From IMG/VR virus record IMGVR_UViG_3300021088_000010, positions 451-64,450 of that record: 64,000 nucleotides of DNA; one strand, written 5' to 3'. Under the pieces are notes generated by a model, which had not been told where the DNA came from, did no database searches, and saw nothing but the letters and a program-made list of their open reading frames with translations. Shown piece after piece: positions 2,691-62,423 of this stretch; within the stretch, counting starts at the first letter, position 1, and each line of letters begins with the position of its first letter. A program made the translations under genes and the position numbers. Source of the stretch: a virus (taxonomy: Duplodnaviria > Caudoviricetes).

Positions 2691-4976
2691 GTGGCTGCTT
2701 ACTCAGATACGATGCAAGCTTCTGGACCTGCTACTGTTACTGGCTATGCCAGTGGTCCAAACTTGCCTCCACAGAATGGCACTTCAGCTACCAATAGTAC
2801 AATAGAGCAGAATAAGACTTCGGGCGCGGGCCTCATTACTGATCGTAACCGTCTGACAACATGGGTTCTTGATACGCTCCAGCGTATGAGAAACTTCCGT
2901 AGGCCTTACGATCAGCGGCGTGCATATTTCTACCGTCAGTATATCGGTCAAAGAGACCGCAGGATGTATCCTGATAACCTGACGCCGCGCTCCAACACAT
3001 TCGTTCCCATTCCTAAAAGCAATGTGGATCATATAGTTGCGCGGACGCATGATGCGTTCTTTAGCCTTGATCCCCCAATTGAAGTCCGTCCTAAAGGTGG
3101 AACTCCAGATCAGGCCTGGCAGATGGAAGCTGTTGAACTCACTTGCTTAAAGAAGGCACAGTGGATTCAAAAGCTTGAATTAGCTATTCGTGATTGCTGC
3201 ATCTATGGGCACATGGGCTTGAAGGTTGACTGGGACTGGGATTATGACGTTGTAAGCGGGCCTGAACCACAATGGGCTATGCAGCCTAAAGTTGATCCCA
3301 ATACTGGGCAGCCAGTTATGGACACGCAAGGTCAACCAGAAATGGTTCCTGTTTGGGATGCTAATGGCAATCCAATCCAGATTGGGACACAAATGGTTAC
3401 GAAGAATGTTCCTCGTAACTGTCCTAAGCTTATACCTATTGACATTTATGATCTACTTATTGATCCAGATGGGAAGCAAAAGGCTCATGTTCTGGAAATG
3501 AGCTGGGGTGAGATGAAGCGTTCGGTTGAGTCTAATCCGAATCTTTACTTCCCCGAGTCTATTGCTCAATTAACTACTAAGCTTAAGCAGTATAGAGACC
3601 TAGATGCAGACGGAATTATCATTCGTATGGCTGAGTTTTGGGATGATACTTCTAAGACTACCACAGTTGTGACCTTTGGAGAAGACGCAGATGCCATCGG
3701 ATGGAAGGATCGAAGGTATCAGTATCGCAATGCTTCTTACTCAGCCTATAAACGGCGGGTCTATAATGGACCCCCGGTTCTTCTCTATACAGGACCTAAT
3801 CCTTTTGCCCATAAACGAATCCCTATTCTTGACTTCGCGTATGTACCAATTAAAGGCGACGCTTACGGAATTGGTCTTATTGAAACAATAAGTGACCTTT
3901 GTGAAGGCATCAACGTCTTCACAAACATGATTACTGATAACTGGAACATGAGCATCAATAGGCGCTACGCCTATGATGTTCAAGTAGATATAGACCACGA
4001 CCAGTTAGACATGGGGAACGTCCCCGGTGGTAAGGTTGGCGTTGTGGGAGACCCGCAGAAAGCTATTTTCCCTCTGCCAAACTTCACTCCCAATCAGCAA
4101 GACTACATGATTTTGGATTTGTACCAAAAGTTCACGGAGGCAGGCTCAGGCATTGATGATTTCTATAGCAAAGGCATTGGCTCACCAGGGCCGAACCAAA
4201 CTGCATCAGGAATTGATTCCGCAATGCAAACTGGTGGGTACTCATTTAAGCTATTCATTCGTAGATTTGAGCTGGAAGTTCTTCAGCCTCTTTGTGAGAT
4301 GGTAGCAAGTATGATCCAACAGTTCGGCACAGACGAACTGGAATGGAGTATCACCAATGCGCCTCCAGGTATTCCTAAGTGGGGCCACGTTAAGCTTACT
4401 GATCTTTTTGGTGACTATGCATTCGATTTCGTGGGCGCTAACTACGCTACAGGTAAGCAGATAAAACAACGTAACTTAATGGCCTTTTATAATCTGGCTA
4501 TGCAATCCCCCTATGCTAACCAAGGTGAGTTCCTACGTGAAATCGCTCGGTGCATGGAAATCTCAACATACTCACGCTTGATGAAGACTGACCAGCAGGT
4601 ACAGCAAGAACAACAAGCAGCTACACAAGCTCGTCAGCAAGAAGAGTTGATTAAAGAGTTGTTGAAGATTGAGGGTAAGGTTCTCAACACTCAAGCAGGT
4701 AAGCCTGAGTTCCGGCCTACGATGTCTACTATGATCTCTGATCCAGCTCAACCTCATGCTGAGTCGGTTCAGCAACAGGTTGAAGCCTATCTCGGTCAAG
4801 CAGTAGAATCTGTTATGGGCTATGCTCCTCCTCCCACTGCTCCACCTATTCACCCTGTTGGACAACCCAAGAAGGGTCAGTTTGAGGGACCCATTCCGGG
4901 TGGACAGCAGAGGGACTCCATGCGAGCCACTGGGCAGGACATGGGCACGAACTCAATTGGTCAGGCGGGGATGTAA
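2691..4976 (+). CDS. portal protein (P22/podovirus-like)
   Basis: 761 aa, upstream of scaffold and capsid; IYGHMGLKVDW, YGIGLIE and NQTASGI segments typical of portals; Gln/Pro-rich C-terminal tail. Confidence 0.85.
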   Translation: MAAYSDTMQASGPATVTGYASGPNLPPQNGTSATNSTIEQNKTSGAGLITDRNRLTTWVLDTLQRMRNFRRPYDQRRAYFYRQYIGQRDRRMYPDNLTPRSNTFVPIPKSNVDHIVARTHDAFFSLDPPIEVRPKGGTPDQAWQMEAVELTCLKKAQWIQKLELAIRDCCIYGHMGLKVDWDWDYDVVSGPEPQWAMQPKVDPNTGQPVMDTQGQPEMVPVWDANGNPIQIGTQMVTKNVPRNCPKLIPIDIYDLLIDPDGKQKAHVLEMSWGEMKRSVESNPNLYFPESIAQLTTKLKQYRDLDADGIIIRMAEFWDDTSKTTTVVTFGEDADAIGWKDRRYQYRNASYSAYKRRVYNGPPVLLYTGPNPFAHKRIPILDFAYVPIKGDAYGIGLIETISDLCEGINVFTNMITDNWNMSINRRYAYDVQVDIDHDQLDMGNVPGGKVGVVGDPQKAIFPLPNFTPNQQDYMILDLYQKFTEAGSGIDDFYSKGIGSPGPNQTASGIDSAMQTGGYSFKLFIRRFELEVLQPLCEMVASMIQQFGTDELEWSITNAPPGIPKWGHVKLTDLFGDYAFDFVGANYATGKQIKQRNLMAFYNLAMQSPYANQGEFLREIARCMEISTYSRLMKTDQQVQQEQQAATQARQQEELIKELLKIEGKVLNTQAGKPEFRPTMSTMISDPAQPHAESVQQQVEAYLGQAVESVMGYAPPPTAPPIHPVGQPKKGQFEGPIPGGQQRDSMRATGQDMGTNSIGQAGM

Positions 4977-5215
4977 TGGATTCCGTTAACATCACTGCCC
5001 TAACAGGTGAGAACGGCACTGGATTTGAGAAGCGTGGGAACAAGGGACCTTTCCAATGCGCTAACTGTGAACACTATCCTAGCCCTTATGTATGTGACCA
5101 AAAAGACATGATGCGAGTTTCAAAGCAACCTAAGTGGCCAGATGGAACCGTTAAAGTAGACCCAGAGGATTGCTGCTCTTTTCTAGAACGTACAGGTAAA
5201 TTTTGGAGAAAATAA
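4976..5215 (+). CDS. small Cys-rich protein, HiPIP-like cysteine spacing
   Basis: CANCEHY...C...VDPEDCCSF; coupled to the portal stop. Confidence 0.5.
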   Translation: MDSVNITALTGENGTGFEKRGNKGPFQCANCEHYPSPYVCDQKDMMRVSKQPKWPDGTVKVDPEDCCSFLERTGKFWRK

Positions 5216-5216
5216 G

Positions 5217-5564
5217 ATGTCAGAGTGCAAACCAGCCGCTTCTAGTACGACTCCTACTTCAAGCTGCGAACGAATTCTAACGGAGTTTCAAGCTCAAGGG
5301 CGACCTGACAGTGTCTCTAACTTTATTCCCGAAGGTGGAATAATGGGCGGGTTTGATATCAAGACTCCCCGCGTGGGCACAGGGTTTATTGAGTGGGCTC
5401 TTACAGGGTATGACTCAGGTCATGATCTTGAAGGACGCGCTCCAGCAGCCGTTACTACGCCGAACTACGACAAGCGTGGGGATTGGCTGTATGACAAGAA
5501 TGTTGGTCACACTGTAGACGGGGATACCAACAACTATAAAACACCCCCTACAAATAAAAAGTAA
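5217..5564 (+). CDS. hypothetical protein
   Basis: Tightly packed ORF in the head operon. Confidence 0.55.
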   Translation: MSECKPAASSTTPTSSCERILTEFQAQGRPDSVSNFIPEGGIMGGFDIKTPRVGTGFIEWALTGYDSGHDLEGRAPAAVTTPNYDKRGDWLYDKNVGHTVDGDTNNYKTPPTNKK

Positions 5565-5575
5565 AGGATACTTCT

Positions 5576-5779
5576 ATGGAACTCGGCAAAACATTGAACT
5601 TGGACGGCCACGCGGCCTATCAGCCAGAACATACCTATGCTCACCCGATTGCTAATTCATTCGCTTCGGCGATTGGGTTTGACGCGGAAGGCAAGGTTGT
5701 GTCCCCTGACGGTGGACCTATGGGCGCTTCTGTTCACAGTCCGTCTGGCGCACCGGATTTTCGTTCGGGCGCTCGATAG
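5576..5779 (+). CDS. hypothetical protein
   Basis: AAGGA RBS, in operon. Confidence 0.55.
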   Translation: MELGKTLNLDGHAAYQPEHTYAHPIANSFASAIGFDAEGKVVSPDGGPMGASVHSPSGAPDFRSGAR

Positions 5780-5796
5780 CTAACTTTGGAGGGGAT

Positions 5797-6222
5797 ATGT
5801 TTGGATGGTTAGATAGAACTGCACCAGAAGTGAAGATTGTTGAAAAAGTAGTCTATAAGGTAGTAGAAGTTAAATCTCCTCGCAGCAGCCAAGCGTGGAG
5901 CAAAGAAATCAAGGATGCGATCAGTACTCTCTCTTCACATCCAGGTTTCGTTGCATTGACAGACCGCCTCAACCTACAACGACAGATGCTTGAGAGTAAG
6001 CTATCCCGTGAGTTTCACAAAGACTTGCGAGAGATAGATTATCTTCAAGCGGGAGTGTTCTGGTTGGGGTATATACAGGACTTAGTTGCGAAGGCTACTA
6101 ACTTGATTCCCTCTGCTCCTGTGGATGCAATGCAAGAAGAGATGGAAGCTTTTAAACTTCTAGACTCTCAAATTGAGAGGATAGGAATAGAGGACCCACA
6201 AGGTCCTCAGCAACAAAATTAA
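5797..6222 (+). CDS. hypothetical helical protein preceding the scaffold gene
   Basis: GGAGG RBS; position between portal and scaffold. Confidence 0.6.
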   Translation: MFGWLDRTAPEVKIVEKVVYKVVEVKSPRSSQAWSKEIKDAISTLSSHPGFVALTDRLNLQRQMLESKLSREFHKDLREIDYLQAGVFWLGYIQDLVAKATNLIPSAPVDAMQEEMEAFKLLDSQIERIGIEDPQGPQQQN

Positions 6223-8858: not shown

Positions 8859-9377
8859 ATGGCTGATTTCTCACAAGCCGTTGCTAAGACTGAACTTTGG
8901 GAGGGTGGATACTCAAACAATCCCAACGACAGCGGTGGGGAAACCTATCGGGGTATCTCTCGAAAGAACTGGCCTTCATGGTCAGGTTGGCAAGTAATAG
9001 ACCAGCACAAAACTGAGTCGGACTTTCCTGCCAACCTCGATCAAGATTCAGTTCTACAGGGCCTAATAGTAGACTTCTACCACAAGAACTTTTGGAACTA
9101 CGACGGTCTCAACGATCAAGATGTAGCAAACAAGGTTTTTGATCTGGGGGTGAATGTTGGCAAGACTCACGCTGTTAAAATACTTCAGACCACAGTAGGA
9201 GCTGTAGTGGACGGGATATACGGGGAAGCCACCGAAAACCTCAGCAATCACCACCCTAAGGGGTCCTTATCAACACTTATTCGAGCTGCTGCTGAGGATT
9301 ACTACAAAAAATTAGTTATACTGCACCCCGAGGACTCGATCTTTCTTAAGGGATGGCTTGCAAGAGCGGAGGCATAG
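8859..9377 (+). CDS. endolysin, glycoside hydrolase family 108 with peptidoglycan-binding C-terminus
   Basis: EGGYSNNPNDSGGETYRGI catalytic motif; FDLGVNVG, VDGIYG, FLKGWLAR. Confidence 0.92.
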   Translation: MADFSQAVAKTELWEGGYSNNPNDSGGETYRGISRKNWPSWSGWQVIDQHKTESDFPANLDQDSVLQGLIVDFYHKNFWNYDGLNDQDVANKVFDLGVNVGKTHAVKILQTTVGAVVDGIYGEATENLSNHHPKGSLSTLIRAAAEDYYKKLVILHPEDSIFLKGWLARAEA

Positions 9378-9808: not shown

Positions 9809-10234
9809 ATGGGCTTTGACATCAGTTCACTGATTGGTGGTTCAATTGGGGATGCCTTTCAGAAGATCATGTCGGTCTTCAAGGTAGACCCGACAGTTGC
9901 TTTACAAAGTCGAACCGACATTGAGAAGATTCAACTTGAACTTCAAGGTAAACTTCAAGATGCAGTGTCTAATGAAATCAGTCAAGCTGCTGATGTAATT
10001 AAAGCAGAGGCTACTTCACAGAGTTGGCTGCCACGTAATGTGCGACCTTTACTCCTTCTATTTTGGGGGGTGGCTATTACTTTCAATGAAGTAGTGCCTA
10101 TCATCGCGCGATTCTGGATTCCAACTATACAGCCCCTAGTCTTAGACCCTTGGGTTTTCAAACTCACAGCAATAGGTTTCACTGGATACGTTACCGCTCG
10201 AACCTGGGAGAAGGTAACAGATAAAGATAACTAG
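9809..10234 (+). CDS. holin (3TM holin-like)
   Basis: IKAEATSQSWLPRNVRP, hydrophobic helices, GYVTARTWEK C-terminus; near the lysin. Confidence 0.8.
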   Translation: MGFDISSLIGGSIGDAFQKIMSVFKVDPTVALQSRTDIEKIQLELQGKLQDAVSNEISQAADVIKAEATSQSWLPRNVRPLLLLFWGVAITFNEVVPIIARFWIPTIQPLVLDPWVFKLTAIGFTGYVTARTWEKVTDKDN

Positions 10235-10254
10235 ACAAGGACCCTCTGGGTGGT

Positions 10255-11625
10255 ATGGCATACACAACTTTTCCTTCAGTCCAAAACGTAATTGATGGTG
10301 TAAGCCAAGACGTTCGTAACCAGCTCTCTGCTCAGCTTGGTACGACTGGTCAGCCTGTTCTTATTGACTATACCAATCGCATTCATAAGCAGATGTTGAG
10401 GTTCAGTCGCTGGAACTTCTTGAAGTCTGAGCCTCAGTACTTTCTTACGAACTTAGGGCAGTCATCGTATTGGGTAGGTCCACAGGGTCAGGGGCCTGCT
10501 GGTACTGTGGAAACTCAGCTTAATCTCCCTGACGTGTATCAGTTTAAGAAAGACTCCGTAATGGACCTGTCTAATCAGCAGGCTCTTAAGTGGTTGTTTA
10601 CCAGTCCACAGGGTCCTAATCTTATTACGCGAACTGGGGCAGGTAGGCCGGGACTTCCTGCGGTGTTCAGCCAAAGTCTCAATGACCCGAATATCTTGAT
10701 GATATTCCCCCCTCCGAACAACCAGAATAACACACAGCCTGAACCCCAGGTTCCTATCGTTCAGGCTCTTTCGGGTGGGACACTTCCTGTACGAACGTAT
10801 CTGCTAAAGATTACCTTAGTGGATTCCTTGGGCGGGGAGAGTACTTCAACTACTACAGGTGCGCCTCTCTTTCTTCCCCTGAACAGCCTTGCTGTTGTTA
10901 AGAGTCCCGCAACTGGATACTTTGGGATACTTCCTGACGAAGAGAGCATCGCTGGAGTTCAATATAATCGCTATAACGTGTATGCCGTTCAAGCTCAGCT
11001 TGTAAACGGCATTCCTACTAATGAAGGCACAGAGACATTGCAGAACTCTGTGCCTATTTCTTTTGGTACTGACTGGACTGAGCCCCTGACGGGATTGATT
11101 ACCTCCGGGCCGCAGGTTCCACGGGTCAATACACTTCAGCCTGTGGGGGCTTACGTCATTAAGTTTGAATACTATAAGAACAGGGTTAAGTTAACCAACC
11201 CCACTCAAACTCTTCAAATACCCGATGACTACATTGACGTTATAATTGCTGGAGTTACTTGGCTTGCCTACAAAATTATGGGCAAGGTTCAAGAAGCTCA
11301 GATGCAGTATCAGTTGTATCGAGCAGGCTTGACTGAAATGATTCAGGATAAGAATCTGTTCCCAGAGGGTGTGGAGTTCATTCGGCCTGATAGTAACTCA
11401 TATGTCAACACTCAGATACTAGGGTACCTCGATCCGTTTTTCGTTTGTTTTGTTCCACTTACACAGTCACAATTGATGACGCTGGAGGGCGTATGGGAGT
11501 CGTTACTAGAACGTGTGAGAATTGTGGTACAACTCATACATATACAGTTAGAAAGAAAAAGACGTACAATATTGGATTCTATTGTGTTAACTGTCGAAAA
11601 GCTGAACAAAAAGCTATTCGAATAG
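10255..11625 (+). CDS. head-tail adaptor / tail tubular protein A-like with an inserted beta domain
   Basis: RWNFLK, LMIFPPP, YYKNRVKL...IPDDYIDVIIAG adaptor-type segments; last ~60 aa look like read-through into the HNH gene. Confidence 0.65.
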   Translation: MAYTTFPSVQNVIDGVSQDVRNQLSAQLGTTGQPVLIDYTNRIHKQMLRFSRWNFLKSEPQYFLTNLGQSSYWVGPQGQGPAGTVETQLNLPDVYQFKKDSVMDLSNQQALKWLFTSPQGPNLITRTGAGRPGLPAVFSQSLNDPNILMIFPPPNNQNNTQPEPQVPIVQALSGGTLPVRTYLLKITLVDSLGGESTSTTTGAPLFLPLNSLAVVKSPATGYFGILPDEESIAGVQYNRYNVYAVQAQLVNGIPTNEGTETLQNSVPISFGTDWTEPLTGLITSGPQVPRVNTLQPVGAYVIKFEYYKNRVKLTNPTQTLQIPDDYIDVIIAGVTWLAYKIMGKVQEAQMQYQLYRAGLTEMIQDKNLFPEGVEFIRPDSNSYVNTQILGYLDPFFVCFVPLTQSQLMTLEGVWESLLERVRIVVQLIHIQLERKRRTILDSIVLTVEKLNKKLFE

Positions 11626-16946: not shown

Positions 16947-18146
16947 ATGGCCATGTTTGACAATACGAATACTAATCAAGCTAACACTGGTGGGGCCTAT
17001 CAGACTAATTCTCCTTGGCAGAATAACTTTAGTGGCCAGTTGAATGACATGCTGGCTCCTTATAATAATACTATTGGCCAGTATCAGCAGATGGCTAAGC
17101 AGTTCCAAAGCCCCTACATGACTATGAGCCCTAATAGTTGGCTGGCTCGTAATCATCCGCAGGTTGCGGGAGTATTGGATAATGCCTTCTTAACAGGAGC
17201 TATGACCCCTGAAGCGCAGGGTCCTGAGGGTGCTGGTGGGGGTATATCCAGAATGATGCAAGGCTTAATGGGCGGCACACAAGCTCGTCGGCAACAGATG
17301 ATTCAGTCTGCGATGTTGCCGTATCAAATGGCTGGTGCCCAGTTGGGTGCGATGGACGTTGCCTCTCAGATTGGTGAGCGGCGAGCTATGGTTCCATTCC
17401 GCATGGCTCAGGAACGTAGGTATGATGCTCAGTCTGAGATGTACTATAATAGAATGGCTCAGGGAGATCGCTCTAAGACAATGGCGGGAGCTGATCTTAC
17501 AGACGATAAGGGTGGAACGTGGAGTCGGGTCTTTGATCCCGTTGCAGGAAGAGTCGATCTAGTTAATCCAGTAACTCAACAGAAGGCCAGTGAACTACCT
17601 GCCGATCAACAGCCTGCATTCACTAAAGAACAGCGTAGCCAGCGCATGTCTGCTCCTGGTGGTTTACTGGGAGAGACTTACGACATGATGAATAGTGCTG
17701 ATCCTGCTATTGCAGCACGAGGACGCCAGCTTCATCAACAGTACATTCAAGATCAAAGTGCAATAGCCGGGGCAAGAGCGGGGGGTACTCAAGGAATCAC
17801 AGAGCCCCCCAAGGACTTCAAATCCTTCGTAATGCAAGAACGTACAGCAGCCTATGGAGCCCTACCTAAGCTCCAAACAGCTACAGACTTTCAAACTTCT
17901 CACCTAACAGATCAAGACTACTGGAAGAATCCTCAGAAAGCTTATGAAGGTTACGTCAAGCAGTCTCAAGCTTCTAGGCAACAATTAGATGTGGACCTTA
18001 GTAAGTATGAGAAGAGTTCTGCCCCCCGTATGGGTGTGAGCTACCAAGAATACATGCAAGATCGCAGTAAGTGGGATGGCTCTGCCCCCGAGCCCGCTCC
18101 CCCTGCCGTAGCTGGCGGTACAGGCTCTCAGTGGAATCCTAAATAA
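16947..18146 (+). CDS. internal virion (ejection) protein 2
   Basis: Gln/Ala/Met-rich helical protein between the small and giant ejection genes. Confidence 0.6.
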   Translation: MAMFDNTNTNQANTGGAYQTNSPWQNNFSGQLNDMLAPYNNTIGQYQQMAKQFQSPYMTMSPNSWLARNHPQVAGVLDNAFLTGAMTPEAQGPEGAGGGISRMMQGLMGGTQARRQQMIQSAMLPYQMAGAQLGAMDVASQIGERRAMVPFRMAQERRYDAQSEMYYNRMAQGDRSKTMAGADLTDDKGGTWSRVFDPVAGRVDLVNPVTQQKASELPADQQPAFTKEQRSQRMSAPGGLLGETYDMMNSADPAIAARGRQLHQQYIQDQSAIAGARAGGTQGITEPPKDFKSFVMQERTAAYGALPKLQTATDFQTSHLTDQDYWKNPQKAYEGYVKQSQASRQQLDVDLSKYEKSSAPRMGVSYQEYMQDRSKWDGSAPEPAPPAVAGGTGSQWNPK

Positions 18147-21100
18147 TGCCCCAAGATAATCAGACACCGCAGCAGATTCCCGGCTCTGACGTTCTTCTCG
18201 ACACCCTTCGTAGGTCCCGTCTAACTGACGATCAACGTCAGCAGATGTGGGATGCCTATCATACTCCGGGTGATGAGAAGGCATTCATTGGAGCCATGCG
18301 TGGACTTCCAGTGAACGATGACGTTCGCCAGAACCTTTATGATATGCGCTATAAGGGCTGGAAGAACGAGCCCACTAACGCACAGGGACCAAAGGCTGCT
18401 CAAGCACAGACCGTAGCTAGTCTGGATACTCAGACTCCCGCTAAGGGAGATGTGCGTCCGTCAGCTACCGATGTTTTGTCAAAGACCACAGGTATCAGTC
18501 CTGCTAGCACTTGGCAGCGGCTTGGTAACGTGGTCGCTCCTTTTATGGAGCACATGCGTGTCGGTGGAGCAGCGCAAGGTGAAGGTCTAGTAGACCCTGG
18601 AGCTGCCGTGTCTTCCCGGCATCCTATCTTAAAGGCTACAGGCGAATTTGCTGGCGGTCTAACCTCAGCCCCAAATCTAATTCTAGCCGGTGGAAGTGCT
18701 GGATTGAGTGAAGCAGCTCCCGTAGTTTCCAAGCTGCTTAATCTCGGTTTCTCTCAGCAAATGCTAAAAGGGGCTTATGAACGCTATGCTCCCTTTAAGG
18801 AAGCCATTGATCGTGGAGATTCTGATGCTGCTTTAGAGCACTTCACTCATATGGTTCTAGGTGGAGCATTCGGCCTCCACTCAGCTACCGAAGGAATGTC
18901 TACTGATCCCAAGACCCGCATGGACGTTCGCAAGAACATCGCTACTGAGGCTAAGCTACGTGGAAATGATCCAGTCCTAAACTCTGCTGTTAGGCAGGCT
19001 GCTACACTGCCAGACAAAGCCACCCCACTGGGTCCTATATCTGAAACTGGTGGTCAGCAATTACACCTTGACTTCACCACTAAAGCTCCTACTGAAGCTC
19101 GTGCTCCTCAACATACTGATCTTAACGCCACTAAAGCTGCTGATGCTCCTCCTAGATATGCTCCTAAGCCCGCTACTGGGACCCCTGGGGGTGGCCCAAC
19201 TTCTCCTCAAGAACTCGCCCGAGTTGGCGGGCTGGTCTACAAAGGTGAATTGTTTCCAGGTGCAGGTGTACACCAGTTTGAGCATCCCGATTATCCCGCG
19301 CAAACTATGGCGGTTAAAGAGAGTGATATTCCCAGTAAGTTAGGTGCTGCGGTAGACTACCTGCGTGGCCGTATGCAGGAGAAGCTGGATCAGAAGCCTA
19401 TTGTATCGGAGGCACCAAAGCCTGTTCAACGGGATATCCCTACTCTTATTCAGCAGTTACACGGAAACTTTGATCGTATAGCTGACTTGAACAGGCAACG
19501 AGACGCTGCTGAGTCCGATCAACTAGCAGATGAGATAGGCAGGAAACACCAAGATCAGGAAGCTTCAGTAAGGTCTATACTTGCGGGGGACATGGCGAGG
19601 TGGTCTAATAAGGACGTAGCCACGTTTAGGGATAGTGCGACAACTGAGGCTCAGAGGCTTGAGGCTCAGGCGAAAGCTATTCAAGACCTGACGGAAGCTA
19701 CGGTTAAGAACCGTGGCGTTAAGAAAGAGATTGCTGACCTGCGTTCGCAGGGTGGGCCACTTAGGTACATAGTTGATCCTGAGACTGGTGAGCGTGTTTC
19801 AGTCAAGCCTGACTCGCCCGCTGGGCGTGGAGCTAGGTCTGTATTCGATGAATTACAGGGCCGGGTTCCTACTAGTGAGTTTAGTTCTATTGAAGTACAC
19901 GGTAAGCCTGAAGGTGTGTCTGATAAAGAGTGGGGCGACCATGTTACTAAACTTCAAGAGGAGCGGGTTGGTCTCAAGCGTAAGATTTCTGATGCTGTCA
20001 CTGTTGCTTCTGATACTGGGTCATCTATAGCTGAGGCTGGAATAGAGGAGCACGTTGCTAGGTTGAAAGAGATTGAGGGTTTACTGGGGAAGTATCAGGA
20101 ACCTGCTGAGACTGGACGTAGGCCGAATCTTGCCCCTGAGTTAGATGAGCAGGGAGCTATCAAGGCTCCTGAACCCTTGAAGTCTTGGACTCTTGAACGT
20201 GCGCGATTGGCGCTTGGCGCTAAGGTTAAGCAGATTCCTACCGATGAGGAGTTCTTTCAGCACGCTGACTTGAGGAACGAGAAGGGCCGTTTGTTTCGCA
20301 GTGTGGCCGATGTTGCAGATGGGGTGCTGAAAGATAGAAAGCGTGGGGGTCAGGCAGGGGTGTTGGGGGAAGGTGCATTAAAAGGGCAAGTCAAGCAGGT
20401 TTCTTTAGCGGATCGTGTACCCTCTGACGATGAAATAATGCGGCGTGCCAATGCCGCGAAGATTTATGCTCGGGAACTTAGTGATGACTTTAGAATGGGT
20501 GTAGCGGGATTCTTATCCAGAGATGGTCGTATTGGAATTGACTCTGGGAACATGATGCACGATGATGTAGCGCAGACTGTACTCCCTGAATTAGTCATAC
20601 CTAAAGCCTCAAAGGGAGGCTTCACTGATAGTGGAAGTCCTCTACGAGCCATGCTTGAGAAGGGCTGGATTAGAAAAGCCTCTCCTGTGGACTATGAGAC
20701 ATGGGCAGCAGACTCTCGGGCATTGAAGACCATTGAAACGGATATGCTACGAAATGGTAAGTACGGGCAGAAGGTGAGTATTGATGTCCGAAAAGCTGTT
20801 GGCAACTACGTAGGTTTAACCATTGAACAAGGTTGGGATGAAAAGTACAGCAACCTTGAGGATGCAGTTAATGCAGCTAAGCGCCGTCAAGGTTGGGGTC
20901 CTGAACAAGGTGCTATCTCTGGGGCTAGACTGGCTACTGGTGGTACAGTTGGTGGAATTGTCGGCTCTCTGGTAGGCGCTCATCTTGGACATCCATATGA
21001 AGGGGCCGCAATTGGTTGGGGACTTGGTTTCGTCACTCCAGCTATTGCGGATCATCCCTTAATGTGGAACCGCTTGAATTCTATTCGCCCGGCCATCACC

Positions 21101-24127: not shown

Positions 24128-24847
24128 ATGACAAAAATAAAGCCCCGATTTCCCGTTCGTGAGTTTCTAGGGAAGTTCGAGGCTTGGCTATTAGTTATGA
24201 AGGGCGGCCACGTCATGCGTTGCTATGACGGTGTGCTAGAGCGTTTGTTTGAGATGTTCCCAAAACGCACAGGTATAGAACAGTTCGTCAGCATGGACAT
24301 AGGGGACTATGTTGCCGTTCGTACCAAGCAGGGTGCAGCCCAGCTAAGTCTCAATCACGAACTCAGTATGTTAAGCAACTTCTTCAAGTGGTGTCAAGAG
24401 GATCAGCACCTAAAGGTCTATAACCCTGCCAAGATATACATAGGTCACTGGAAAACTGAGAAGGTCCCCAACCACAAAATCTTTACGCTCGACAAACTCA
24501 ACCGGCTTCTTGATGCTGTGCCGTTGAAAGAGAAGAGAATAATCTTGAGCGTGATTCAGGGAGGCGAGTGTCCCCGGTACCGGGCAGGTAATGTAATCAG
24601 GGAAGCTGCAAAGCAACTTGGCTTTGAGGGCTTTAGTATGGGAGCCCTGAAGCGTGCGAGTAAAAACAGGTTGGGAAGGGAGATTATAGAGTACTACTGC
24701 CGTCAAGTTAGCAATACCTTGCCTCCTGAAGCCCAATGCTATGGCGACACCCTCGCTACAGTCCAGCGAGCGGCCCCTAATGAACGGCCCGCGATCTGCG
24801 ACAGTTACAACTACCCTCTTATTTGTAACGGGATTAATCAACAGTAG
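24128..24847 (+). CDS. degenerate tyrosine-recombinase-like protein (core-binding domain, no intact catalytic set seen)
   Basis: IGDYV...SLNHELSMLSNFFKW...NPA...FTLDKLNRLL resembles an integrase N-domain; HxxR box appears as MGALKR. Confidence 0.55.
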   Translation: MTKIKPRFPVREFLGKFEAWLLVMKGGHVMRCYDGVLERLFEMFPKRTGIEQFVSMDIGDYVAVRTKQGAAQLSLNHELSMLSNFFKWCQEDQHLKVYNPAKIYIGHWKTEKVPNHKIFTLDKLNRLLDAVPLKEKRIILSVIQGGECPRYRAGNVIREAAKQLGFEGFSMGALKRASKNRLGREIIEYYCRQVSNTLPPEAQCYGDTLATVQRAAPNERPAICDSYNYPLICNGINQQ

Positions 24848-25072
24848 CTTAGTCCCGAAGGGGAGAGTCTTATGAGCTACAGTCATTGCCAGCTTATCGT
24901 AATGTTTGCCGTTAGCCATGACCTTACCCGACTCGTCGCCGTACCAGCTTGATACCACCCCGAAAGGGGTCCTAGAACTTAAATCCGTCGCCTTGGCTGT
25001 CGGGGTCAAGGTTAGCATAAAAGGCATCAAGACCAGCCCAGTCAGTATCGCTCTCTTTCTCCATGTAATCAA
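24410..25072 (-). CDS. rlpA: RlpA-like lytic transglycosylase (DPBB) with signal peptide
   Basis: SSWYG...MANG...TVAHKTLPFGT...VVVTVADRGPFIRGRSLDCS. Confidence 0.85.
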   Translation of the reverse strand: MITWRKRAILTGLVLMPFMLTLTPTAKATDLSSRTPFGVVSSWYGDESGKVMANGKHYDKLAMTVAHKTLPFGTKLLLINPVTNKRVVVTVADRGPFIRGRSLDCSEGVAIALGFRRQGIANLTAVVLYNLPSQPVFTRTLQGSHTKALKAKLLCSFPDYITCPVPGTLASLNHAQDYSLLFQRHSIKKPVEFVERKDFVVGDLLSFPVTYVYLGRVIDL

Positions 25073-43866: not shown

Positions 43867-43893
43867 ACTCGTTAATAGGACCCTTGGGGTGGA

Positions 43894-44112
43894 CTACATC
43901 CAGTTCCACTTACTTTTAGGTGATGTGGCTACGGACAGCTGCTTTATATTTCCACCGTCATCCATAGAAATAAGCGTGAGAGTACGTTCCGGTTCAACAT
44001 CAAACTGGTCCGCCTCCTTTTTCGCCTCTGCTACAGTCTTGTAGGGTCCATCGACTTCCACGTACATATCCCCCGATCCATCTCTACAGATAACGTAGTA
44101 TAACTCTTTCAT
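43894..44112 (-). CDS. hypothetical protein
   Basis: GAGGA RBS. Confidence 0.6.
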   Translation of the reverse strand: MKELYYVICRDGSGDMYVEVDGPYKTVAEAKKEADQFDVEPERTLTLISMDDGGNIKQLSVATSPKSKWNWM

Positions 44113-44646: not shown

Positions 44647-45060
44647 TTAGAATCGTCCTCCCTCTATTTTGTCTGTGTACCTGAAATCTTTGAAACAGTG
44701 TTCATATACCCAAGCATCCACCACCTTATCCACAGCCTCTTGCTCATCCCACAGGCAGACAGGAACAATCTTCCGTGTGTAAACTCGCCCGTTTTGTTCT
44801 ATACCATCCAGCCAATCCCACAACTCATCTGGGATGTCCCACAACTCGCCGTAAGCTATCTCTTTGTCCCTTGTTAAGCGAAGTCCTACTCCGCGAAATT
44901 TACCACCCCCAATGGGTCCTATGCCAAAGAGACTTGCACCTTCAATGTAACATTCCCCCAAGAATTCGGCATCGTAGTTGGTCAAGTCAAGTTCAAGTCC
45001 CCTTTTAAGGATTCCATATGTCATGAGCTTTTTGTTTTCCATAGGATTCATATACCCCAT
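44647..45060 (-). CDS. gamma-glutamylcyclotransferase (AIG2-like)
   Basis: TYGILKRG, GELWDI, LDGIE...YTR, AWVY; start may be the ATG at 45042. Confidence 0.85.
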   Translation of the reverse strand: MGYMNPMENKKLMTYGILKRGLELDLTNYDAEFLGECYIEGASLFGIGPIGGGKFRGVGLRLTRDKEIAYGELWDIPDELWDWLDGIEQNGRVYTRKIVPVCLWDEQEAVDKVVDAWVYEHCFKDFRYTDKIEGGRF

Positions 45061-47647: not shown

Positions 47648-47861
47648 TTGAATCTCCCCTTTCTCGGGCCGTGAGTGGACGCAAATTTTTCTCGTGTGTT
47701 CTATCTCTGCCAGTCGGCGAATATTCGGCTTCAAACGTGCAACCATGACCTAGGGATGGTTTCGTTCTCAACCAGCACCACGTCGATAAAATACGCACGT
47801 ATGATTTCTTGTAGACCGTCAATTTGACGACCTGCCCCGCTTGAAACTTAGGCTTGGCCAT
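47634..47861 (-). CDS. hypothetical protein
   Basis: MAKPKFQAGQVV; same RBS repeat. Confidence 0.6.
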   Translation of the reverse strand: MAKPKFQAGQVVKLTVYKKSYVRILSTWCWLRTKPSLGHGCTFEAEYSPTGRDRTHEKNLRPLTARERGDSNGQT

Positions 47862-48375
47862 TTGAATCTCCTTTCACGCCAGGAGCGTCATGCCAAGTAT
47901 TCGCACATAGCTCTGATTTGTATTCCGATTCGGACACTCGAACATCGTAGCGAATGGAACGCATTTTAGACCCGCACGCCGGGCAGGCAGCGAAACGGGA
48001 ACCTTCTTTCTGCGAGACGGTAGGAGCGTCCAGAGCGGCGCGAAATCTAGCCAATTTTTCCGCCGCCTCTCTTGCAAACTCTTGATGGTTCGACGGAGAC
48101 TCAATTTCGCGCTTCAAGTAAAATTCCACTGTCGGCGCAACTGCCTCCATCCTCCCGCGCAGGTCGGTTATCTCCGTTTCAAAGGTTCGAGCCCGTTTCA
48201 TCCACAATTCAAGTTGTGCCTCATAGTCTTTAATTCGACCAGTATCGCGTCTTGTCTCAGCATTACACGAGGGGCAAGACTCCTGCGTGGATTGCCATTG
48301 ATGCTTCGCACAGTCACTCATGGCTCTTGTCTCCTTAGGCTGCCGCACGGTGATACGATTCCCCACCGTACTCAT
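47848..48375 (-). CDS. hypothetical protein with zinc-ribbon motifs
   Basis: CPSC, CPACG. Confidence 0.5.
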   Translation of the reverse strand: MSTVGNRITVRQPKETRAMSDCAKHQWQSTQESCPSCNAETRRDTGRIKDYEAQLELWMKRARTFETEITDLRGRMEAVAPTVEFYLKREIESPSNHQEFAREAAEKLARFRAALDAPTVSQKEGSRFAACPACGSKMRSIRYDVRVSESEYKSELCANTWHDAPGVKGDSNGQA

Positions 48376-52272: not shown

Positions 52273-52482
52273 AGTCTGAATCCTTTCAAACCCAGACGTT
52301 GGGCAGCCTCAGAGAAGGTTATGTTTTGCGATAAAGCAAACTCGTTAATACGCTCTTGACAACGCTGACACAAAACAATGCGACCGACCAAACCAAGAAT
52401 CAAAGTCTTACGTGGACACATTTGACACTGCGCTTGCGTCACAGCTGCGCTCCTCTCGACTACTAGGACCCTTTGGGGTGGG

Positions 52483-52821
52483 TTAATTCACAAACTCAAT
52501 TTCATCGCCTTGCTCTGCAAAGATAGCCTTTAGCCTGGTTTCACGTACCGCGTCACTTATTTGGTCGTTGTCATTGGCATTGTAGGCCGGTCCAATCATA
52601 TTCCTAGTATCCCTCATCCAGCTAGGGAATAGTGTACAATTTGGGTCATCTTTATAGTTCATTTCAACTATATCTGAGCGATTCAATATGGCAGAGTCAG
52701 GTATACCGCATTGCTGCGCTACGAAACCGATGCAGCATCGTGTACCATCTTCGCGAAGTAGTGAACTTGTATCACTGCCATGCCCACGATACCACGTTCG
52801 CCTGTCTACAATGAATTTCAT
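52483..52821 (-). CDS. hypothetical early protein
   Basis: GGGAG RBS; WYRG...SSLL...RCCIG. Confidence 0.65.
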   Translation of the reverse strand: MKFIVDRRTWYRGHGSDTSSLLREDGTRCCIGFVAQQCGIPDSAILNRSDIVEMNYKDDPNCTLFPSWMRDTRNMIGPAYNANDNDQISDAVRETRLKAIFAEQGDEIEFVN

Positions 52822-53652: not shown

Positions 53653-54550
53653 TGCTATTCTCCTAAGCCGCCATTGCTAACCCGTCGGCGCTCAATTGCT
53701 CGCCCGGTTGCCGTTTGCGGCGGATACACTCATCAGAATTTCTCGGCGCGACCGCTGTTGAGTACATCGAACGCTATACTCATAAGAATATAGCGTGCGG
53801 ATACTCACATCTGTCCCAGATAACTCTCAGCCCAATCCCGAATACGCATAAGCTGTGCCCACCCATCTTCAATCGCCTCAGGTACGGGATCACCATCTGT
53901 GTCATAGATACGACGCAGGTTAGCGAATCTGTTAACCGCTGGTGATAGTGTAACTGCGATGTCCATCTCGACCATAACCGTCACCTCACTGTGGTATCTC
54001 GTTGCGACTATTGCGCTTGCCGCTTGCACCCTCCAGAAAAACTCGGCGGAGCCGTTGAAGGCGATGTTGCAAGCAAAGGAATACTAAAAGTGGAAACAAT
54101 AATGGCTAAAAGGATGCCTTGATTCACAGTAATGATGATGCGGCCCCGGCAAAATATTGAAAAATCGAAACTTATGGCACATAGTGTTGTTGTAACTAGG
54201 CAACTTATAGTCATTTGACATCAATAACATACGGACATAGCCTTTTGGCCTAGGTGGGTGTGGTCCTCCGCTCGGATGAAAAAGGGTGGTAGGCCGTACC
54301 ATGCTCATTCTAAACAGGATACGGCTTTTATTATGAGACCTAGCTAAGTGTCCATAAGCTATTGATTAGGCTAGACTTAACGCGGCGTGGCTCGCAAAGG
54401 CAGCTCGCTCTTGTATTTGATCCACCCACTGGGTCCTCAGGGGACCGCCGTAGCCGTCAGGCGGGAGGCGGGCCGTATACATCTCGGCTAGTAGTACACT
54501 GGCGTAGCCTTTTCTCTTTCTTTGGTTACTTTCTTTCTCTTTTAATGCTG

Positions 54551-54662: not shown

Positions 54663-54834
54663 GTATAAAGACTTTTCGATACTTAATCATACTACGGTGC
54701 TTCGCGTTCCGCTACCGTTTACACTAGCGCGGAAGCTTCAGGCCGTTTGGACGTATTTGCGAGGGGTGTATTTTGATTTTTGCTTATCTATTCTTGGCTG
54801 TTATGATTTGGGATTGTACTCTAGGGGTATACCA

Positions 54835-55272
54835 GTGGCTAAAGAAGGTAAGGTAGAACTCTGGTACACTGACGCCACTGAGCTAATGGCTAGGACTGGT
54901 ATGACCTTGCAGGAAGCTCTTACTGAGCTAGGCATACCTATGACCTCAGTAGAGTGTAACGCTATTATAAGGCGTAAGAGCTTTAATCGTGTCTTATGGG
55001 AAGCCCGTCATCGGTACTTCAATCAGCTAGCTAATGACCCGAACTTTAAGAAAGACACGATTATCGGTAAACTGGTATCGCTTGCCCAACGGCTTGAAGA
55101 TGAGGGTAACTTCGATAAGGCGGCAGAGGCTACACTTAAAGCCGCGAAGGTTGCGGGCTTTGTTGGCCCTGAATCGACTGTTAGTGTCTTTGGGGAACTC
55201 AGTCAAGCTGATCTAGATGCCATTCGTAAAAAGGTAGAAGAGGGCGCAATTGGGAAGTCAAGACCAAACTAA
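54835..55272 (+). CDS. putative terminase small subunit
   Basis: Overlaps the large terminase start; HTH-like N-terminus; likely GTG start at 54835. Confidence 0.65.
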   Translation: MAKEGKVELWYTDATELMARTGMTLQEALTELGIPMTSVECNAIIRRKSFNRVLWEARHRYFNQLANDPNFKKDTIIGKLVSLAQRLEDEGNFDKAAEATLKAAKVAGFVGPESTVSVFGELSQADLDAIRKKVEEGAIGKSRPN

Positions 55273-56812
55273 GGTCAAACAGGCTCTTGAGGAGCTAAAC
55301 AGGCTCCAACCCTCTGAACAGCTTGAGGCAGTTAAGCTACTTCAGGAACGTAGGATTAAGAAGAGTTACGTTAAGTACTTTAAGCCGTGGTCTGAACAGG
55401 CTGCGGCGCTTAAGAAGTTCACTAAGGACATTAAGGTTTTAGGGCTACTCGGAGGGAACCGAAGTGGTAAAACGATTCTGGGCGCGTTTATCTGCGTTGC
55501 TTGGTGCCTTGGCAAGGACTACTTCCAAGGTGAGCCAGCTTGGGAGTGGGTTAAGGACCTACCGATTCCTAAAGGTCCTGTTAATGTGTGGGTTGTCGGG
55601 GTCGATTTTCCTACACTTCGGGACGTTATTTGGCATGAAAAGCTTAGGTATGGAAAGACTCACCCTGCTTTTCTCCCTGATGATCCTAGTGTTATTGCAA
55701 ATGTCAAAGACAACGACTTCCAGATATTCTTCAAGAATGGGACGATTCTAACTGGGAAGTCGGCTGAAGCTGGAAGAGAAAAGTTCCAAGGCGCTTCTGT
55801 TGACCTTATCTGGATAGATGAAGAGTGTGAGAAGCAAGTCTACGACGAGTGCTACCAAAGAACAATTGATTGTTCAGGTAAAATCCTCCTCACGCAGACT
55901 CCTCTTACCGATATTAATTCGGGCGTTAAAGACCCCTGGGTATTCGACCTCTATGAAGACTGGCTGGCGGGTAACAAAAACCTAGAGTTCTGTCAGTTGT
56001 CGATGTTGAATAGTCCTTTTATCAGTGACAAGGACAAAGAAGAGGCTAGAAACAAATGGGCAGGTGATCCAGAAGAGGATGCCCGGCTATATGGAAAGTT
56101 TGTCAGACGCTCTGGATTGGTATATTCGCTGTGGTCGAATACTGTTCACCTTGTTAAGCCTTTTGCTGTACCTCAGTATTGGTCTCGCATTGTTTCTATT
56201 GATCCTGCCGCTACTGGTATTACCGCAGGTCTCTGGATTGCAGTCAACCCTGAGGGAGATTATTTCGCTTTTCGAGAGTACTATGAACGGGAGCGAACAG
56301 TAAGCGAGCACGCGAAGTCTTTGATGATGCTTGTTTCTGGTGAGCCTGTTGACTATTGGCTCTTGGACCCGTACTGGGGTGGACAACGAAATGCTGAAAC
56401 ACATAAAGATGGAGCCCAACTGTACAGGGAAGCCGGAATCCCTGTACGACTACCTGATGTTGGGAAAGAAGGATATGCTGTCAACGTATCGAGAGAGTAT
56501 ATCAATGCGACCGTTACTCCAGGCAGTAGACATCCGAAGTTTTACTGCTTTGAAGGCCTCCCGCATTTCCTCCACGAAATAACCCATTATACCTATGACA
56601 TGTTCACCAAGGGTGAGCAGAGGGGCTTGAGTAAAGAGAAACCCCGAAAGCGTAACGACCACCTAATGAACGCTATGCAATACGCTATGTGCTTGCGATT
56701 AAAAGGTGGGAAGGGTAAGGTCAGGAAGAGATTAGAAGCACAGGACGCGGAGTGGTTTGAGTTGTTTTCAGAAGATCAGAATAAAAGAAATTCTAATAGT
56801 TCGTATACGTAG
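55250..56812 (+). CDS. terL: terminase large subunit
   Basis: GGNRSGKT Walker A, LIWIDEE Walker B, TQTP, SIDPA, DHLMNAMQY nuclease motifs. Confidence 0.95.
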   Translation: MGSQDQTKVKQALEELNRLQPSEQLEAVKLLQERRIKKSYVKYFKPWSEQAAALKKFTKDIKVLGLLGGNRSGKTILGAFICVAWCLGKDYFQGEPAWEWVKDLPIPKGPVNVWVVGVDFPTLRDVIWHEKLRYGKTHPAFLPDDPSVIANVKDNDFQIFFKNGTILTGKSAEAGREKFQGASVDLIWIDEECEKQVYDECYQRTIDCSGKILLTQTPLTDINSGVKDPWVFDLYEDWLAGNKNLEFCQLSMLNSPFISDKDKEEARNKWAGDPEEDARLYGKFVRRSGLVYSLWSNTVHLVKPFAVPQYWSRIVSIDPAATGITAGLWIAVNPEGDYFAFREYYERERTVSEHAKSLMMLVSGEPVDYWLLDPYWGGQRNAETHKDGAQLYREAGIPVRLPDVGKEGYAVNVSREYINATVTPGSRHPKFYCFEGLPHFLHEITHYTYDMFTKGEQRGLSKEKPRKRNDHLMNAMQYAMCLRLKGGKGKVRKRLEAQDAEWFELFSEDQNKRNSNSSYT

Positions 56813-59500: not shown

Positions 59501-59531
59501 CCTAAATAGGACAAAATAGAAAGGAAAAACT

Positions 59532-60659
59532 ATGAGCCTATTCAGGAATGAATCTCCTAATCTCGGTAAAAACACTACCTGTAACTGGTTGTCGGGTTCT
59601 GACGTTCTTGTTGCAAGGGATATGTACGCAATTCCCACAGCCGGACCTCATGAACAAGTTTTTGGACAACCCCCTCTCACTAACCTTGCTATTGATCCCA
59701 ACACTCAACGTAGCTATGCTATCGTAGCTCCTGCTGCGACTACCTTCACGCTAGGTGCGCCCTCACTAGGACCCCTCGTTTCGGGTTCTGGAGTTGGTCC
59801 TCTTAGTGATGGCAAGGTGCTTATTTTCAAATCCTTTACCAACTTCGCCCACATTATAAGTGCTCCCGGTCTAATCTTAAATGGGACATCTTCTACTCCG
59901 CTCGACTTTATTCAGTTTCCTCCCTTTGCGGGGGCTGCTGTAGAGTTGACGGCGTATCAGGGCTTTTGGCTTGTCAACAACTTTAGTCCTGTTGGAAATC
60001 CTGGTGTTGTTGTGGGTGCAGGCTCCCCAGGTGCTCCACAACTAGGCTTTGCCTCCACCTACGCTATCGGCGCTCGCGCAACAGAAACCGATGCGGGCAC
60101 TTCTTCGATTACTGGAAATGCATACCTGTCTCCGGGGACTTCGTTTAGCGGTAATACGACAGTCTCAGGTAGGACAGATATTAATAACGCTAACTCAACT
60201 CAAGCAGAAGCGGCAGTTCAGGCTGCTTATCTATACTTGGCTAGTCAAACTAGTACTAACGTGTTGCCAGGAAGTCTTAATAGCGTTACCATTACTCCAG
60301 GTGTTTGGACTGTGGCAACCTCTACGGGCACCACTGGAGCCGCTAACGTGAACTTCGATGCTCAAGGTAATGCCAATGCTATTTTCATCTTGCAAATTGG
60401 GACTACTTTGACATTCGGATCAGGAACAACCATCACGCTTCTTAATGGGGCTCAAGCTAAGAATATCTTCTGGCAGGTTGGCACTTCTGCAACATTTGCT
60501 GGAACAGGTGTTGTCTCCTTCAAAGGCAATCTCTTGGCTGCAGTTTCAATCTCAATGGGTACTTCGGGGGCCACTGTTGGTCGGCTCTTCGCAGGGTCCA
60601 ATGGGGATGCAACCGGGGCTCTCTCATTTGCAGGGACTAACACTGTTGTAACTCCATAA
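59532..60659 (+). CDS. structural protein with C-terminal ice-binding-like (DUF3494) domain
   Basis: ITPGVW, FDAQGNANAIFILQIG, LLNGAQAKNIFWQVGTSAT, FKGNLLA...GRLFA. Confidence 0.85.
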   Translation: MSLFRNESPNLGKNTTCNWLSGSDVLVARDMYAIPTAGPHEQVFGQPPLTNLAIDPNTQRSYAIVAPAATTFTLGAPSLGPLVSGSGVGPLSDGKVLIFKSFTNFAHIISAPGLILNGTSSTPLDFIQFPPFAGAAVELTAYQGFWLVNNFSPVGNPGVVVGAGSPGAPQLGFASTYAIGARATETDAGTSSITGNAYLSPGTSFSGNTTVSGRTDINNANSTQAEAAVQAAYLYLASQTSTNVLPGSLNSVTITPGVWTVATSTGTTGAANVNFDAQGNANAIFILQIGTTLTFGSGTTITLLNGAQAKNIFWQVGTSATFAGTGVVSFKGNLLAAVSISMGTSGATVGRLFAGSNGDATGALSFAGTNTVVTP

Positions 60660-61766: not shown

Positions 61767-61786
61767 GAAGCCTTAGGAGGGCTCAA

Positions 61787-62014
61787 ATGAAAAAGAAACT
61801 GGAAGCTAAACTAAAAGAACTGCAAGCTGGACTTGCACAATCCATTGCCAATCAAAACGCATTCAACGGTGCAATTCAAATTGTGCAGCAGTTAATTAAA
61901 GAGGAAGAGGCTGCTGAAGTACCTACACAGCAGGAAAAGGTTACGAAGGCGCAGCTACCTAAGGCTTCAAATAGTCCCAAGGTCCTCACTCTTCCTACTC
62001 AACCGGCGAACTAA
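61787..62014 (+). CDS. small coiled-coil protein
   Basis: AGGAGG RBS before MKKKLEAKL. Confidence 0.6.
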   Translation: MKKKLEAKLKELQAGLAQSIANQNAFNGAIQIVQQLIKEEEAAEVPTQQEKVTKAQLPKASNSPKVLTLPTQPAN

Positions 62015-62015
62015 C

Positions 62016-62423
62016 GTGATTCTTCAAATCCTAGCTGCGGTTAACTTCATTCTAGGTTCCTATGACGCATGGGTCACGCAGCACAGGATGAAGGTTTTCG
62101 GTAAGAACTTTGAGTTGAATAGGTTAATTAAAGCAGTCGCCACCCACCTGGGTCCTGAGATCGCATCTGTTATCGGTGTCCTAGGACCATGTGTTGGGTG
62201 GACTTACATCTTCTGCTATTTCAATCTTTCGTGGGCGCTAGCCTTAATGGTTGGCTTCAACCTTAAACGGTTTGAACAACAGTTAACTAGCGTAGCTTTT
62301 GAACGAGAGGCACGTAAGATTCAGAAGATGATTAACGAGTTTGGGGCCTCCAACCCGTCCACCCTCCACGGGGGCGAATCAACGCCTTCTGAGGCCCCAT
62401 TTAATTCTAAGCGAGGTAAATAA
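62016..62423 (+). CDS. membrane protein, DUF5658-like
   Basis: DAWVT...ELN motif and hydrophobic helices; resembles 31453..31776. Confidence 0.5.
   Translation: MILQILAAVNFILGSYDAWVTQHRMKVFGKNFELNRLIKAVATHLGPEIASVIGVLGPCVGWTYIFCYFNLSWALALMVGFNLKRFEQQLTSVAFEREARKIQKMINEFGASNPSTLHGGESTPSEAPFNSKRGK

Follow-up and report, generated by a model that had tools for sequence, protein, structure and literature searches.

The virus record IMGVR_UViG_3300021088_000010 (Duplodnaviria; Caudoviricetes), 64,450 bases long and rated complete, carries a two-part DNA word, GGACCC-N3-6-GGGTGG, at many places on both strands. The window analysed here is the whole 64,000-nt stretch of bases 451–64450 of that record. 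Controls within the window and comparison with related phages show that the word is a real and selected signal, which acts at the level of the DNA, is strand-specific and belongs to one phage clade.

The exact pattern occurs 16 times in the window, eight times on each strand. Every copy lies at the place and on the strand given in an earlier note, which had been made from the letters of this stretch and had put the chance expectation below 0.1. Indeed, 100 dinucleotide-preserving shuffles gave a mean of 0.02 matches and a maximum of 1, and the pattern read backwards has no match in the record. If one mismatch and spacers of 2–8 nt are allowed, a single extra copy appears (62184–62201, plus strand, with GGACCA). 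Since this is the only one-mismatch variant, the word is unusually crisp. An A directly precedes 12 of the 16 copies, and the strand labels alternate at 13 of the 15 steps along the window (permutation p 0.009); the earlier note had likewise counted 12 such A's and described a mostly alternating 8/8 split. It had placed eleven copies in coding sequence; according to crude calls of open reading frames (ORFs), 11 of the 16 lie inside ORFs, one of them a doubtful ORF of 69 amino acids (aa), and five are intergenic or at a gene edge.

Relatives of the window phage were located through the large terminase (TerL). The exact pattern has 19 copies (11 plus, 8 minus) in G001 (54 kb) and 18 (nine on each strand) in G003 (63.5 kb), with zero matches for the backwards control in both. 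A 14-base version of the word, scanned over the viral collection, was found in 115 stretches, and seven of these hold at least two copies. Six of the seven (L041, L120, L138, L121, L075 and L128) are relatives of the window phage; the seventh, L147, has two copies and no protein similarity to it. The conserved core is GACCC-N4-8-GGTGG, of which eight related genomes (about 443 kb) contain 143 copies, 72 on the plus and 71 on the minus strand, or about one per 3–4 kb. The counts are 16 in the window phage (G000), 21 in G001, 20 in G003, 17 in G002, 21 in G006, 20 in G007, 20 in G009 and 8 in G010; for the window 0.38 copies would be expected. In the TerL tree the genomes with the core form a single monophyletic group, and five complete outgroup genomes (65–70 kb) contain 0–1 copies each.

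Within the clade the word is written in dialects that follow the tree. Dialect A, aGGACCC-N3-6-GGGTGG, is used by G000, G001 and G003, and dialect B, GGACCC..nGGTGG, by G002. G006, G007 and G010 share dialect C, GACCC-WYT-n-AGGTGG, and dialect D of G009 is the same with TGGTGG. L011–L013, whose terminase is 79–83% identical to that of the window, have GACC(n)..GGGTGG, and a TerL identity of 83% does not preclude a difference in dialect. Both the word and its dialects offer a simple signature to recognise the clade in metagenomes and to sub-type it. Two relatives outside the core clade have other two-part words, also with variable T-rich spacers. G008 (L223–L225, 40.5 kb) contains nine copies of GCCGAC-N4-6-GGCAC(A), six plus and three minus, and G416 (L349–L352, an outgroup relative of 70.5 kb) contains 13 copies of cTAAGGGGGCTT-N2-8-GTCTGATG, nine plus and four minus. 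The latter word can also be written with the left half GGGGCTT, as GGGGCTT-N-GTCTGATG; the ATG inside it opens no gene (ORFs of 3–110 codons). Besides its two-part word, G008 has 10 palindromic GCGCT..AGCGC sites.

Inside genes, the word is maintained independently of what the genes encode. The earlier note had proposed codon-preserving shuffles as a check, and in 200 synonymous-codon shuffles per genome the in-gene copies vanished. The window retained a mean of 3.6 and a maximum of 6 matches against 16 observed, a residue that consists of the intergenic copies left unshuffled; G003 retained 0.22 against 18, and the core in G007 fell to 3.6 against 20. G001 has positional orthologues of four window sites, namely those in the genes for the helicase, ATP-grasp, terminase and membrane protein. 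None of the 12 arm bases has changed at these four sites, three of the four spacers differ and the flanks are about 75% identical. Other sites, present in only the window or only G001, differ by substitutions without indels. The conservation that had been suggested as a test is thus seen for the arms at the four orthologues, whereas other sites are gained or lost by substitution. In the ATP-grasp gene the site lies at nt 104–107 in G000, G001, G003 and G009, with different spacer lengths and different encoded residues.

The 143 core copies are distributed without regard to gene direction, as had been stated for the window: 51 are in the same sense as the gene, 51 are antisense and the other 41 occupy intergenic or gene-edge positions. 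The latter share is about twice the non-coding share of the genomes (11–16%). The 102 copies inside ORFs use all three frames, in both senses. The shuffles, the orthologues, the ATP-grasp site and the counts of sense and frame rule out both an RNA signal and a mere consequence of the encoded proteins, and the earlier view of a DNA rather than an RNA signal is borne out. A word of 10–12 bases at about 20 even places, half of them in genes, costs coding freedom and must therefore serve something important.

The copies are evenly spaced when each strand is considered by itself. Same-strand gaps are more even than under random placement in 12 of the 16 strand series (coefficient of variation 0.15–0.44, p ≤0.006), which come from the two strands of eight related genomes and are not independent. 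On the plus strand of the window the gaps are 5352, 8940, 8846, 6961, 8892, 8588 and 3899 nt. Pooled copies are less even than those of either strand by itself, and copies on opposite strands can be as close as 37–160 nt. In G001 and G003 the widest gaps between copies of the same strand are where the one-mismatch copies are found. Both strands are populated throughout the genomes, with no strand switch. A copy on one strand is evidently no substitute for one on the other, which implies a reader of single strands or a traveller with a fixed direction that is needed both ways everywhere. Strand alternation is above chance in G000, G003, G002 and G009 (p 0.002–0.016) and not in G001, G006, G007 and G010; we take it to follow from the interleaving of two even series. 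Pairing of opposite-strand copies is significant only in G009 and G010. Among opposite-strand pairs closer than 1.5 kb, 33 are convergent and 14 divergent, which is no more than suggestive. The GC content of the 300-nt flanks of the oriented word is 48.3% downstream and 46.8% upstream (n=141, Wilcoxon p <0.0001), a tiny difference without a sharp local feature, between sites of eight genomes that are not independent.

The two halves of the word are partly self-complementary, and the earlier note had seen in them a fixed ACCC/GGGT hairpin. A small hairpin or cruciform as the recognised object, which could be combined with any downstream function, seems unlikely to us. In its favour, every dialect keeps 3–5 self-complementary bases between the halves, in differing registers (ACCC/GGGT; CCAC/GTGG or CCCA/TGGG; GCCGA/TCGGC), and some dialect-C sites fold better than shuffles. 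Eight dialect-C sites range from -0.4 to -5.9 kcal/mol (z +1.6 to -3.0) when they pair as CCAC/GTGG or CCCA/TGGG. The 16 window sites, however, folded as DNA, give -2.0 to -5.2 kcal/mol and do no better than shuffles (z +0.64 to -1.56, mean near 0). Nor does the stem extend: the loop-closing bases are complementary in 7 of 21 cases and bases -1 and +1 in 16 of 53, and the one testable covariation, between spacer base 1 and base +1, gave a Fisher p of 0.50. All three covariation tests are at chance. The fixed hairpin also finds no support in the sister lineages, which lose the stem G (GGACCC..nGGTGG) or have AGGTGG or TGGTGG, so that pairing there would be in another register. The G.G bases that flank the stem are conserved though unpaired, and because these unpaired flanks are invariant, direct reading of the bases is favoured.

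The bacterial genomes sampled do not point to a host factor as the reader. Neither five genomes from soil nor two sets of 401 and 151 genomes, each from a different phylum, show enrichment of the word over its backwards control, although the host may not be among them; G444 and G469 have 3 and 2 hits and are both counted within the set of 151. The 14-base version gave at least 120 bacterial matches; those listed are single ones in scattered taxa, which is weak evidence. The enrichment in candidate hosts that had been proposed as a check was therefore absent from these 557 genomes. Given that the sampled bacteria are unenriched and that the dialects track the phage phylogeny, it is simpler to suppose that the reader is encoded by the phage and co-evolves with the sites, and the sites are probably read by such a factor.

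Several gene products conserved in the clade are candidates for this reader. One is the protein encoded at 24128–24847, just after the giant virion protein, which has a conserved integrase-type N-domain of about 110 aa. It is present in all seven related genomes examined and consists of a SAM-like N-terminal domain without conserved catalytic residues. The others are the small terminase-like protein (54697–55272), the PolA with a UDG-like domain, and small proteins of 93, 151 and 224 aa. The Zn-ribbon protein (47848–48375) and the HNH/endonuclease VII-like protein (33008–33481) were rejected, as both genes are unique to this genome. Also weighed were the product of 62016–62423, which is a small membrane protein, and the giant protein, with LPD38 as its one match. 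The helicase, which the earlier note had listed among possible binders, is of a type that does not track the dialect.

The gene content gives some indication of how the phage replicates. The window encodes a PolA with an N-terminal UDG-like domain, a 297-aa AAA_25 (DnaB-like) helicase, a Sak4-type AAA_24 ATPase and a PD-(D/E)XK nuclease, presumably an exonuclease; this set is typical of recombination-dependent replication. The word would act in cis and would be read on the strand carrying 5'-(A)(G)GACCC-spacer-(G)GGTGG-3'. The process served would proceed along one strand in one direction and would have to work either way throughout the genome. Our tentative proposal is that each copy marks a place where DNA synthesis on its own strand is started or processed, a reading that we put above its rivals without holding it to be probable. 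Primer synthesis, loading of a helicase or replisome, or a programmed nick with a 3'-OH extended by the phage PolA are the forms this could take, and each strand would then have one entry point per 5–9 kb. Two half-sites joined by a variable, T-rich spacer would suit a reader with two domains on single-stranded or locally opened DNA; a duplex binder of rigid geometry, or a hairpin that is stable, fits them less well.

Several observations weigh against a role in DNA synthesis. A primase domain was not found in about 50 window proteins scanned, nor a primase at the syntenic places of relatives or outgroups, and a conserved nickase was not found among the genes of the window and its relatives. 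The mismatch between helicase type and dialect and the mutual dependence of the strand series count on the same side. The priming sites proposed for phage T7 switch strand at the origin, which the word here does not do, and a distance of 5–9 kb is long for Okazaki fragments. Starts, nicks or binding at the sites would be conjectures from sequence, and the 14 soil metagenome runs that contain the phage all do so as contigs, in which the ends of molecules are not visible. The role in priming or helicase loading suggested earlier is thus kept as a candidate, in that it fits the even spacing on each strand, and is weakened by the missing primase. Still, a lineage-specific word every 5–9 kb per strand, read by a co-evolving phage factor, might mean, though this is doubtful, that synthesis starts or restarts without the conventional scheme of an origin plus a primase. 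If true, phages would have a way to organise genome replication and recombination that has not been described before. Starts of synthesis or programmed strand processing at the word, if real, would explain how a large group of uncultured soil phages without a recognisable primase copies its DNA.

Other functions can be envisaged for the word. The sites could be bound as duplex DNA by an architectural or virion-associated phage protein that organises, condenses or protects the genome at packaging or after ejection. The integrase-type N-domain protein, for which DNA binding is predicted, would be a clade-conserved candidate; moreover, the half-sites form a short imperfect inverted repeat (ACC/GGT) and the intergenic and edge positions are over-represented, as described above. 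A static binder gives no reason, however, for an even series on each strand while copies on opposite strands lie 37 nt apart, and a spacer variation of 3–4 bp would turn the half-sites by about 100 degrees or more relative to each other. The spacer varies even within one genome, in agreement with the earlier remark that the word is no rigid dimer operator. We regard a duplex-bound site as doubtful. Programmed single-strand interruptions of virion DNA on both strands, with no part in the start of replication, are an improbable explanation, even though a crisp short word in about 10–20 copies, conserved in a clade and accompanied by related words in related lineages, is what the analogues in T5, phiKMV-like and tf/Rembedalsseter-like phages would lead one to expect. 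The copies known there are clustered on one strand, whereas here each strand carries an even series, and nicks at opposite-strand copies 37–45 nt apart would leave only a short duplex to hold the genome together. The missing conserved nickase speaks against this explanation as well.

A Chi-like signal would tame a tracking helicase-nuclease, either the host RecBCD or AddAB or a phage enzyme, protect DNA ends and channel them to recombination. Orientation-dependent reading from either side predicts separate even series per strand, as are observed, and one copy per 3–4 kb is near the density of Chi in Escherichia coli. The 3' half of the word is also similar to the last bases of Chi in that species. 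Against this stand the 10–12 fixed bases and the variable spacer, where Chi words are contiguous 5–8-mers, and the dialect change at 83% TerL identity, which is faster than expected of host recombination enzymes. In addition, none of the sampled bacteria is enriched, though the host may be missing from the sample, and no RecB/AddA-type helicase was seen among the scanned phage proteins. The Chi-like role named in the earlier note therefore agrees with the per-strand evenness and finds no counterpart in host enrichment among the genomes sampled; we consider it quite improbable. Finally, dispersal over both strands recalls DNA uptake sequences (DUS) and uptake signal sequences (USS), and several copies abut stop codons, so that a host-derived or mobile repeat (an uptake sequence or a REP/MITE-like element) or an RNA signal might be considered. 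Sites that arise by substitution and not by insertion, with lengths of 15–18 nt in all frames inside genes, do not resemble a mobile repeat; the sampled bacterial genomes give a host origin no support; and half of the genic copies are antisense, with no Rfam family or tRNA found in the phage. Such an origin is very improbable indeed.

Along the window, the copies are found in genes of many functions. The first (4887–4903, plus, spacer of 5 nt) lies in the SU10-type portal gene (2691–4976) in the same sense, 73 nt before the stop. It is followed by a minus-strand copy at 9251–9266, antisense within the plus-strand ORF 8859–9377, and by an intergenic plus-strand copy at 10239–10253, 5 nt past the stop of 9809–10234 and 2 nt before the ATG of 10255–11625. 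Two copies lie in the gene of the 1988-aa giant virion protein (18146–24112), in which LPD38 is the sole domain match: 19020–19035 (minus) is antisense and 19179–19194 (plus) in the same sense, and together they form a divergent pair 159 nt apart. Where the plus and minus gene blocks converge, the first G of the minus-strand copy at 24955–24972 doubles as the final base of the TAG stop codon in a dNMP-kinase-like gene (24972–25652, minus). The helicase gene (27462–28355, minus) contains a plus-strand, antisense copy at 28025–28040, with an identical orthologous copy in G001. Three plus-strand copies lie just beyond the stops of minus-strand ORFs, namely 34986–35000 (2 nt past the stop of 35003–35248), 43878–43892 (1 nt past that of 43894–44112) and 52466–52481 (1 nt past that of 52483–52821). 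The earlier note had likewise described several intergenic copies as abutting stop codons.

The minus-strand copy at 36149–36163 is in the same sense at the 3' end of the gene for an ECF-type sigma factor (36123–36686, minus), and it is retained with a different spacer in a strain variant contig whose adjoining sequence is unrelated. Two further minus-strand copies lie in genes of a cluster that encodes a phiEco32-type COOH-NH2 ligase, ATP-grasp, GATase and GGACT: 40274–40289 at nt 107 of the ATP-grasp gene (39641–40396, minus), and 44903–44919 in the same sense as the GGACT-like gene (44647–45060, minus). The minus-strand copy at 54422–54436 is in a divergent region, where the minus block ends at 54308 and the plus block begins at 54697 with the small terminase-like ORF. 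In the large terminase gene (55250–56812), the plus-strand copy at 56365–56382 is in the same sense and its orthologue in G001 has another spacer. The last copy (62140–62155, minus) is antisense in the gene of a small membrane protein (62016–62423, plus) and has an orthologue in G001. The decayed plus-strand copy with GGACCA (62184–62201) is 44 nt from it; in the orthologous membrane-protein gene of G001 both members of this pair are intact, and they are 44 nt apart there too.

A link between the word and mosaic breakpoints was considered and dropped because there were too few events. One strain-contig joint ends 2 nt from the site at 52466; position 54479 is 43 nt off a site, and positions 5290 and 13976 of G010 are not near sites. 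Position 54479 is in itself a recurrent homology breakpoint, at which contigs of two runs (X2 and X3) and L009 stop matching; it lies near the copy at 54422–54436, in the divergent region before the terminase genes.

The phage is only distantly related to described ones. Megablast with the first 20 kb as the query gave no match among phage records. Identity to the capsid proteins of phage records does not exceed 30.5%, and the records with a name are mostly Bacillus megaterium podophages. Alignment of TerL against bacterial genomes revealed no relative. Besides the portal, the large terminase and the LPD38 protein, a SprT-like protein is encoded, and all relatives of the 224-aa protein (38444–39118) are hypothetical. 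A 375-aa late protein (59532–60659, plus) has an ice-binding-like domain (PF11999) and has a counterpart in G007 alone (64% identity). The outgroup phages have a helicase of the DUF3987 type and likewise lack a primase at the syntenic places. In the outgroup relative G417 there is a gene for a complete tyrosine integrase, with Phage_integrase and SAM-like domains (L355:16890–18143, minus), and therefore part of the wider group may be temperate. G416 encodes a 464-aa Ro60-like protein with TROVE and Ro60-type vWA domains (L350:18500–19894, plus). In a distant relative, L194, positions 1531–5882 contain long repeats with a 78-nt period (TCGGC..GGCCA) on one strand, which probably belong to a structural gene of repetitive make-up. 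Long tandem repeats are present in G420 and L185 too.

Our text searches of the literature turned up neither this word nor any phage words that are spaced evenly on both strands. Closest in form are the words at localized nicks. These are short crisp words of about 10–20 copies per genome, which are conserved in a clade with lineage variants and placed regardless of coding (PMC3517423; PMC11780129), as is the word described here. The nick words of T5, of phiKMV-like phages (CGACxxxxxCCTACTCCGG) and of the tf/Rembedalsseter group (WACTRTGAC) are reported to have all copies clustered on one strand (PMC3517423; PMC11780129). Those words cluster towards one end of the genome, whereas the present word is even, two-part and variable in its spacer, and nicks at it are conjectural. 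It shares with them enrichment throughout a clade and near-absence from outgroups (0–1 copies in each of the five), and departs from the one-strand rule both in the window (8+/8-) and in the clade (72+/71-).

For T7, the primase is proposed to choose about 26 active sites, which combine a pentanucleotide with 8 A/T-rich nucleotides and another short element (PMC12839067). These sites are 1–6 kb apart, are read by two linked domains and switch strand at the origin (PMC12839067). The word resembles these sites, which have 5'-(G/T)2GTC-3' as their pentanucleotide and are recognised on single-stranded DNA, in its multi-part build, in the A/T-rich stretch between the elements and in its kilobase spacing (PMC12839067), and the complement of its left half contains GGGTC. 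T7 encodes its primase, whereas in the phage studied here no cognate primase was seen among the scanned proteins, and the sites show no lagging-strand switch at a fixed origin. Moreover, relative to the half that contains GTC the second element is on the opposite side, and 10–12 bases are fixed.

Chi shares with the word an orientation-dependent reading of one strand, the need for both orientations and a density on the kilobase scale. Chi words, however, are abundant in the host and read by host enzymes, whereas the present word is specific to a phage clade. Uptake sequences are similar in their equal use of both strands, their occurrence inside genes and their spacing, which for USS is reportedly even. 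They are chromosomal words of the host with a fixed core that serve transformation, for which a lytic-type phage has no evident use, and no bacterial genome with the hundreds to thousands of copies typical of them was among those sampled. The stoperators of cluster A mycobacteriophages, which are bound by the L5 repressor, are likewise many, short and asymmetric, but they are intergenic and oriented with transcription, whereas the copies here are mostly inside genes and evenly divided between the two senses. Hairpin promoters of the N4 type have a stable stem of 5–7 bp with a 3-nt loop and occur in few copies, co-oriented with early genes. Here the stem would have 4 bp, the loops 3–6 nt and the folds only -2 to -5 kcal/mol, and the orientation is independent of genes. 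Substitutions without indels and the many copies inside ORFs separate the word from REP/MITE-like repeats. Thus each of the known genome-wide words, whether nick motifs, Chi, uptake sequences or primase sites, differs from the word of this phage clade in a defining respect.

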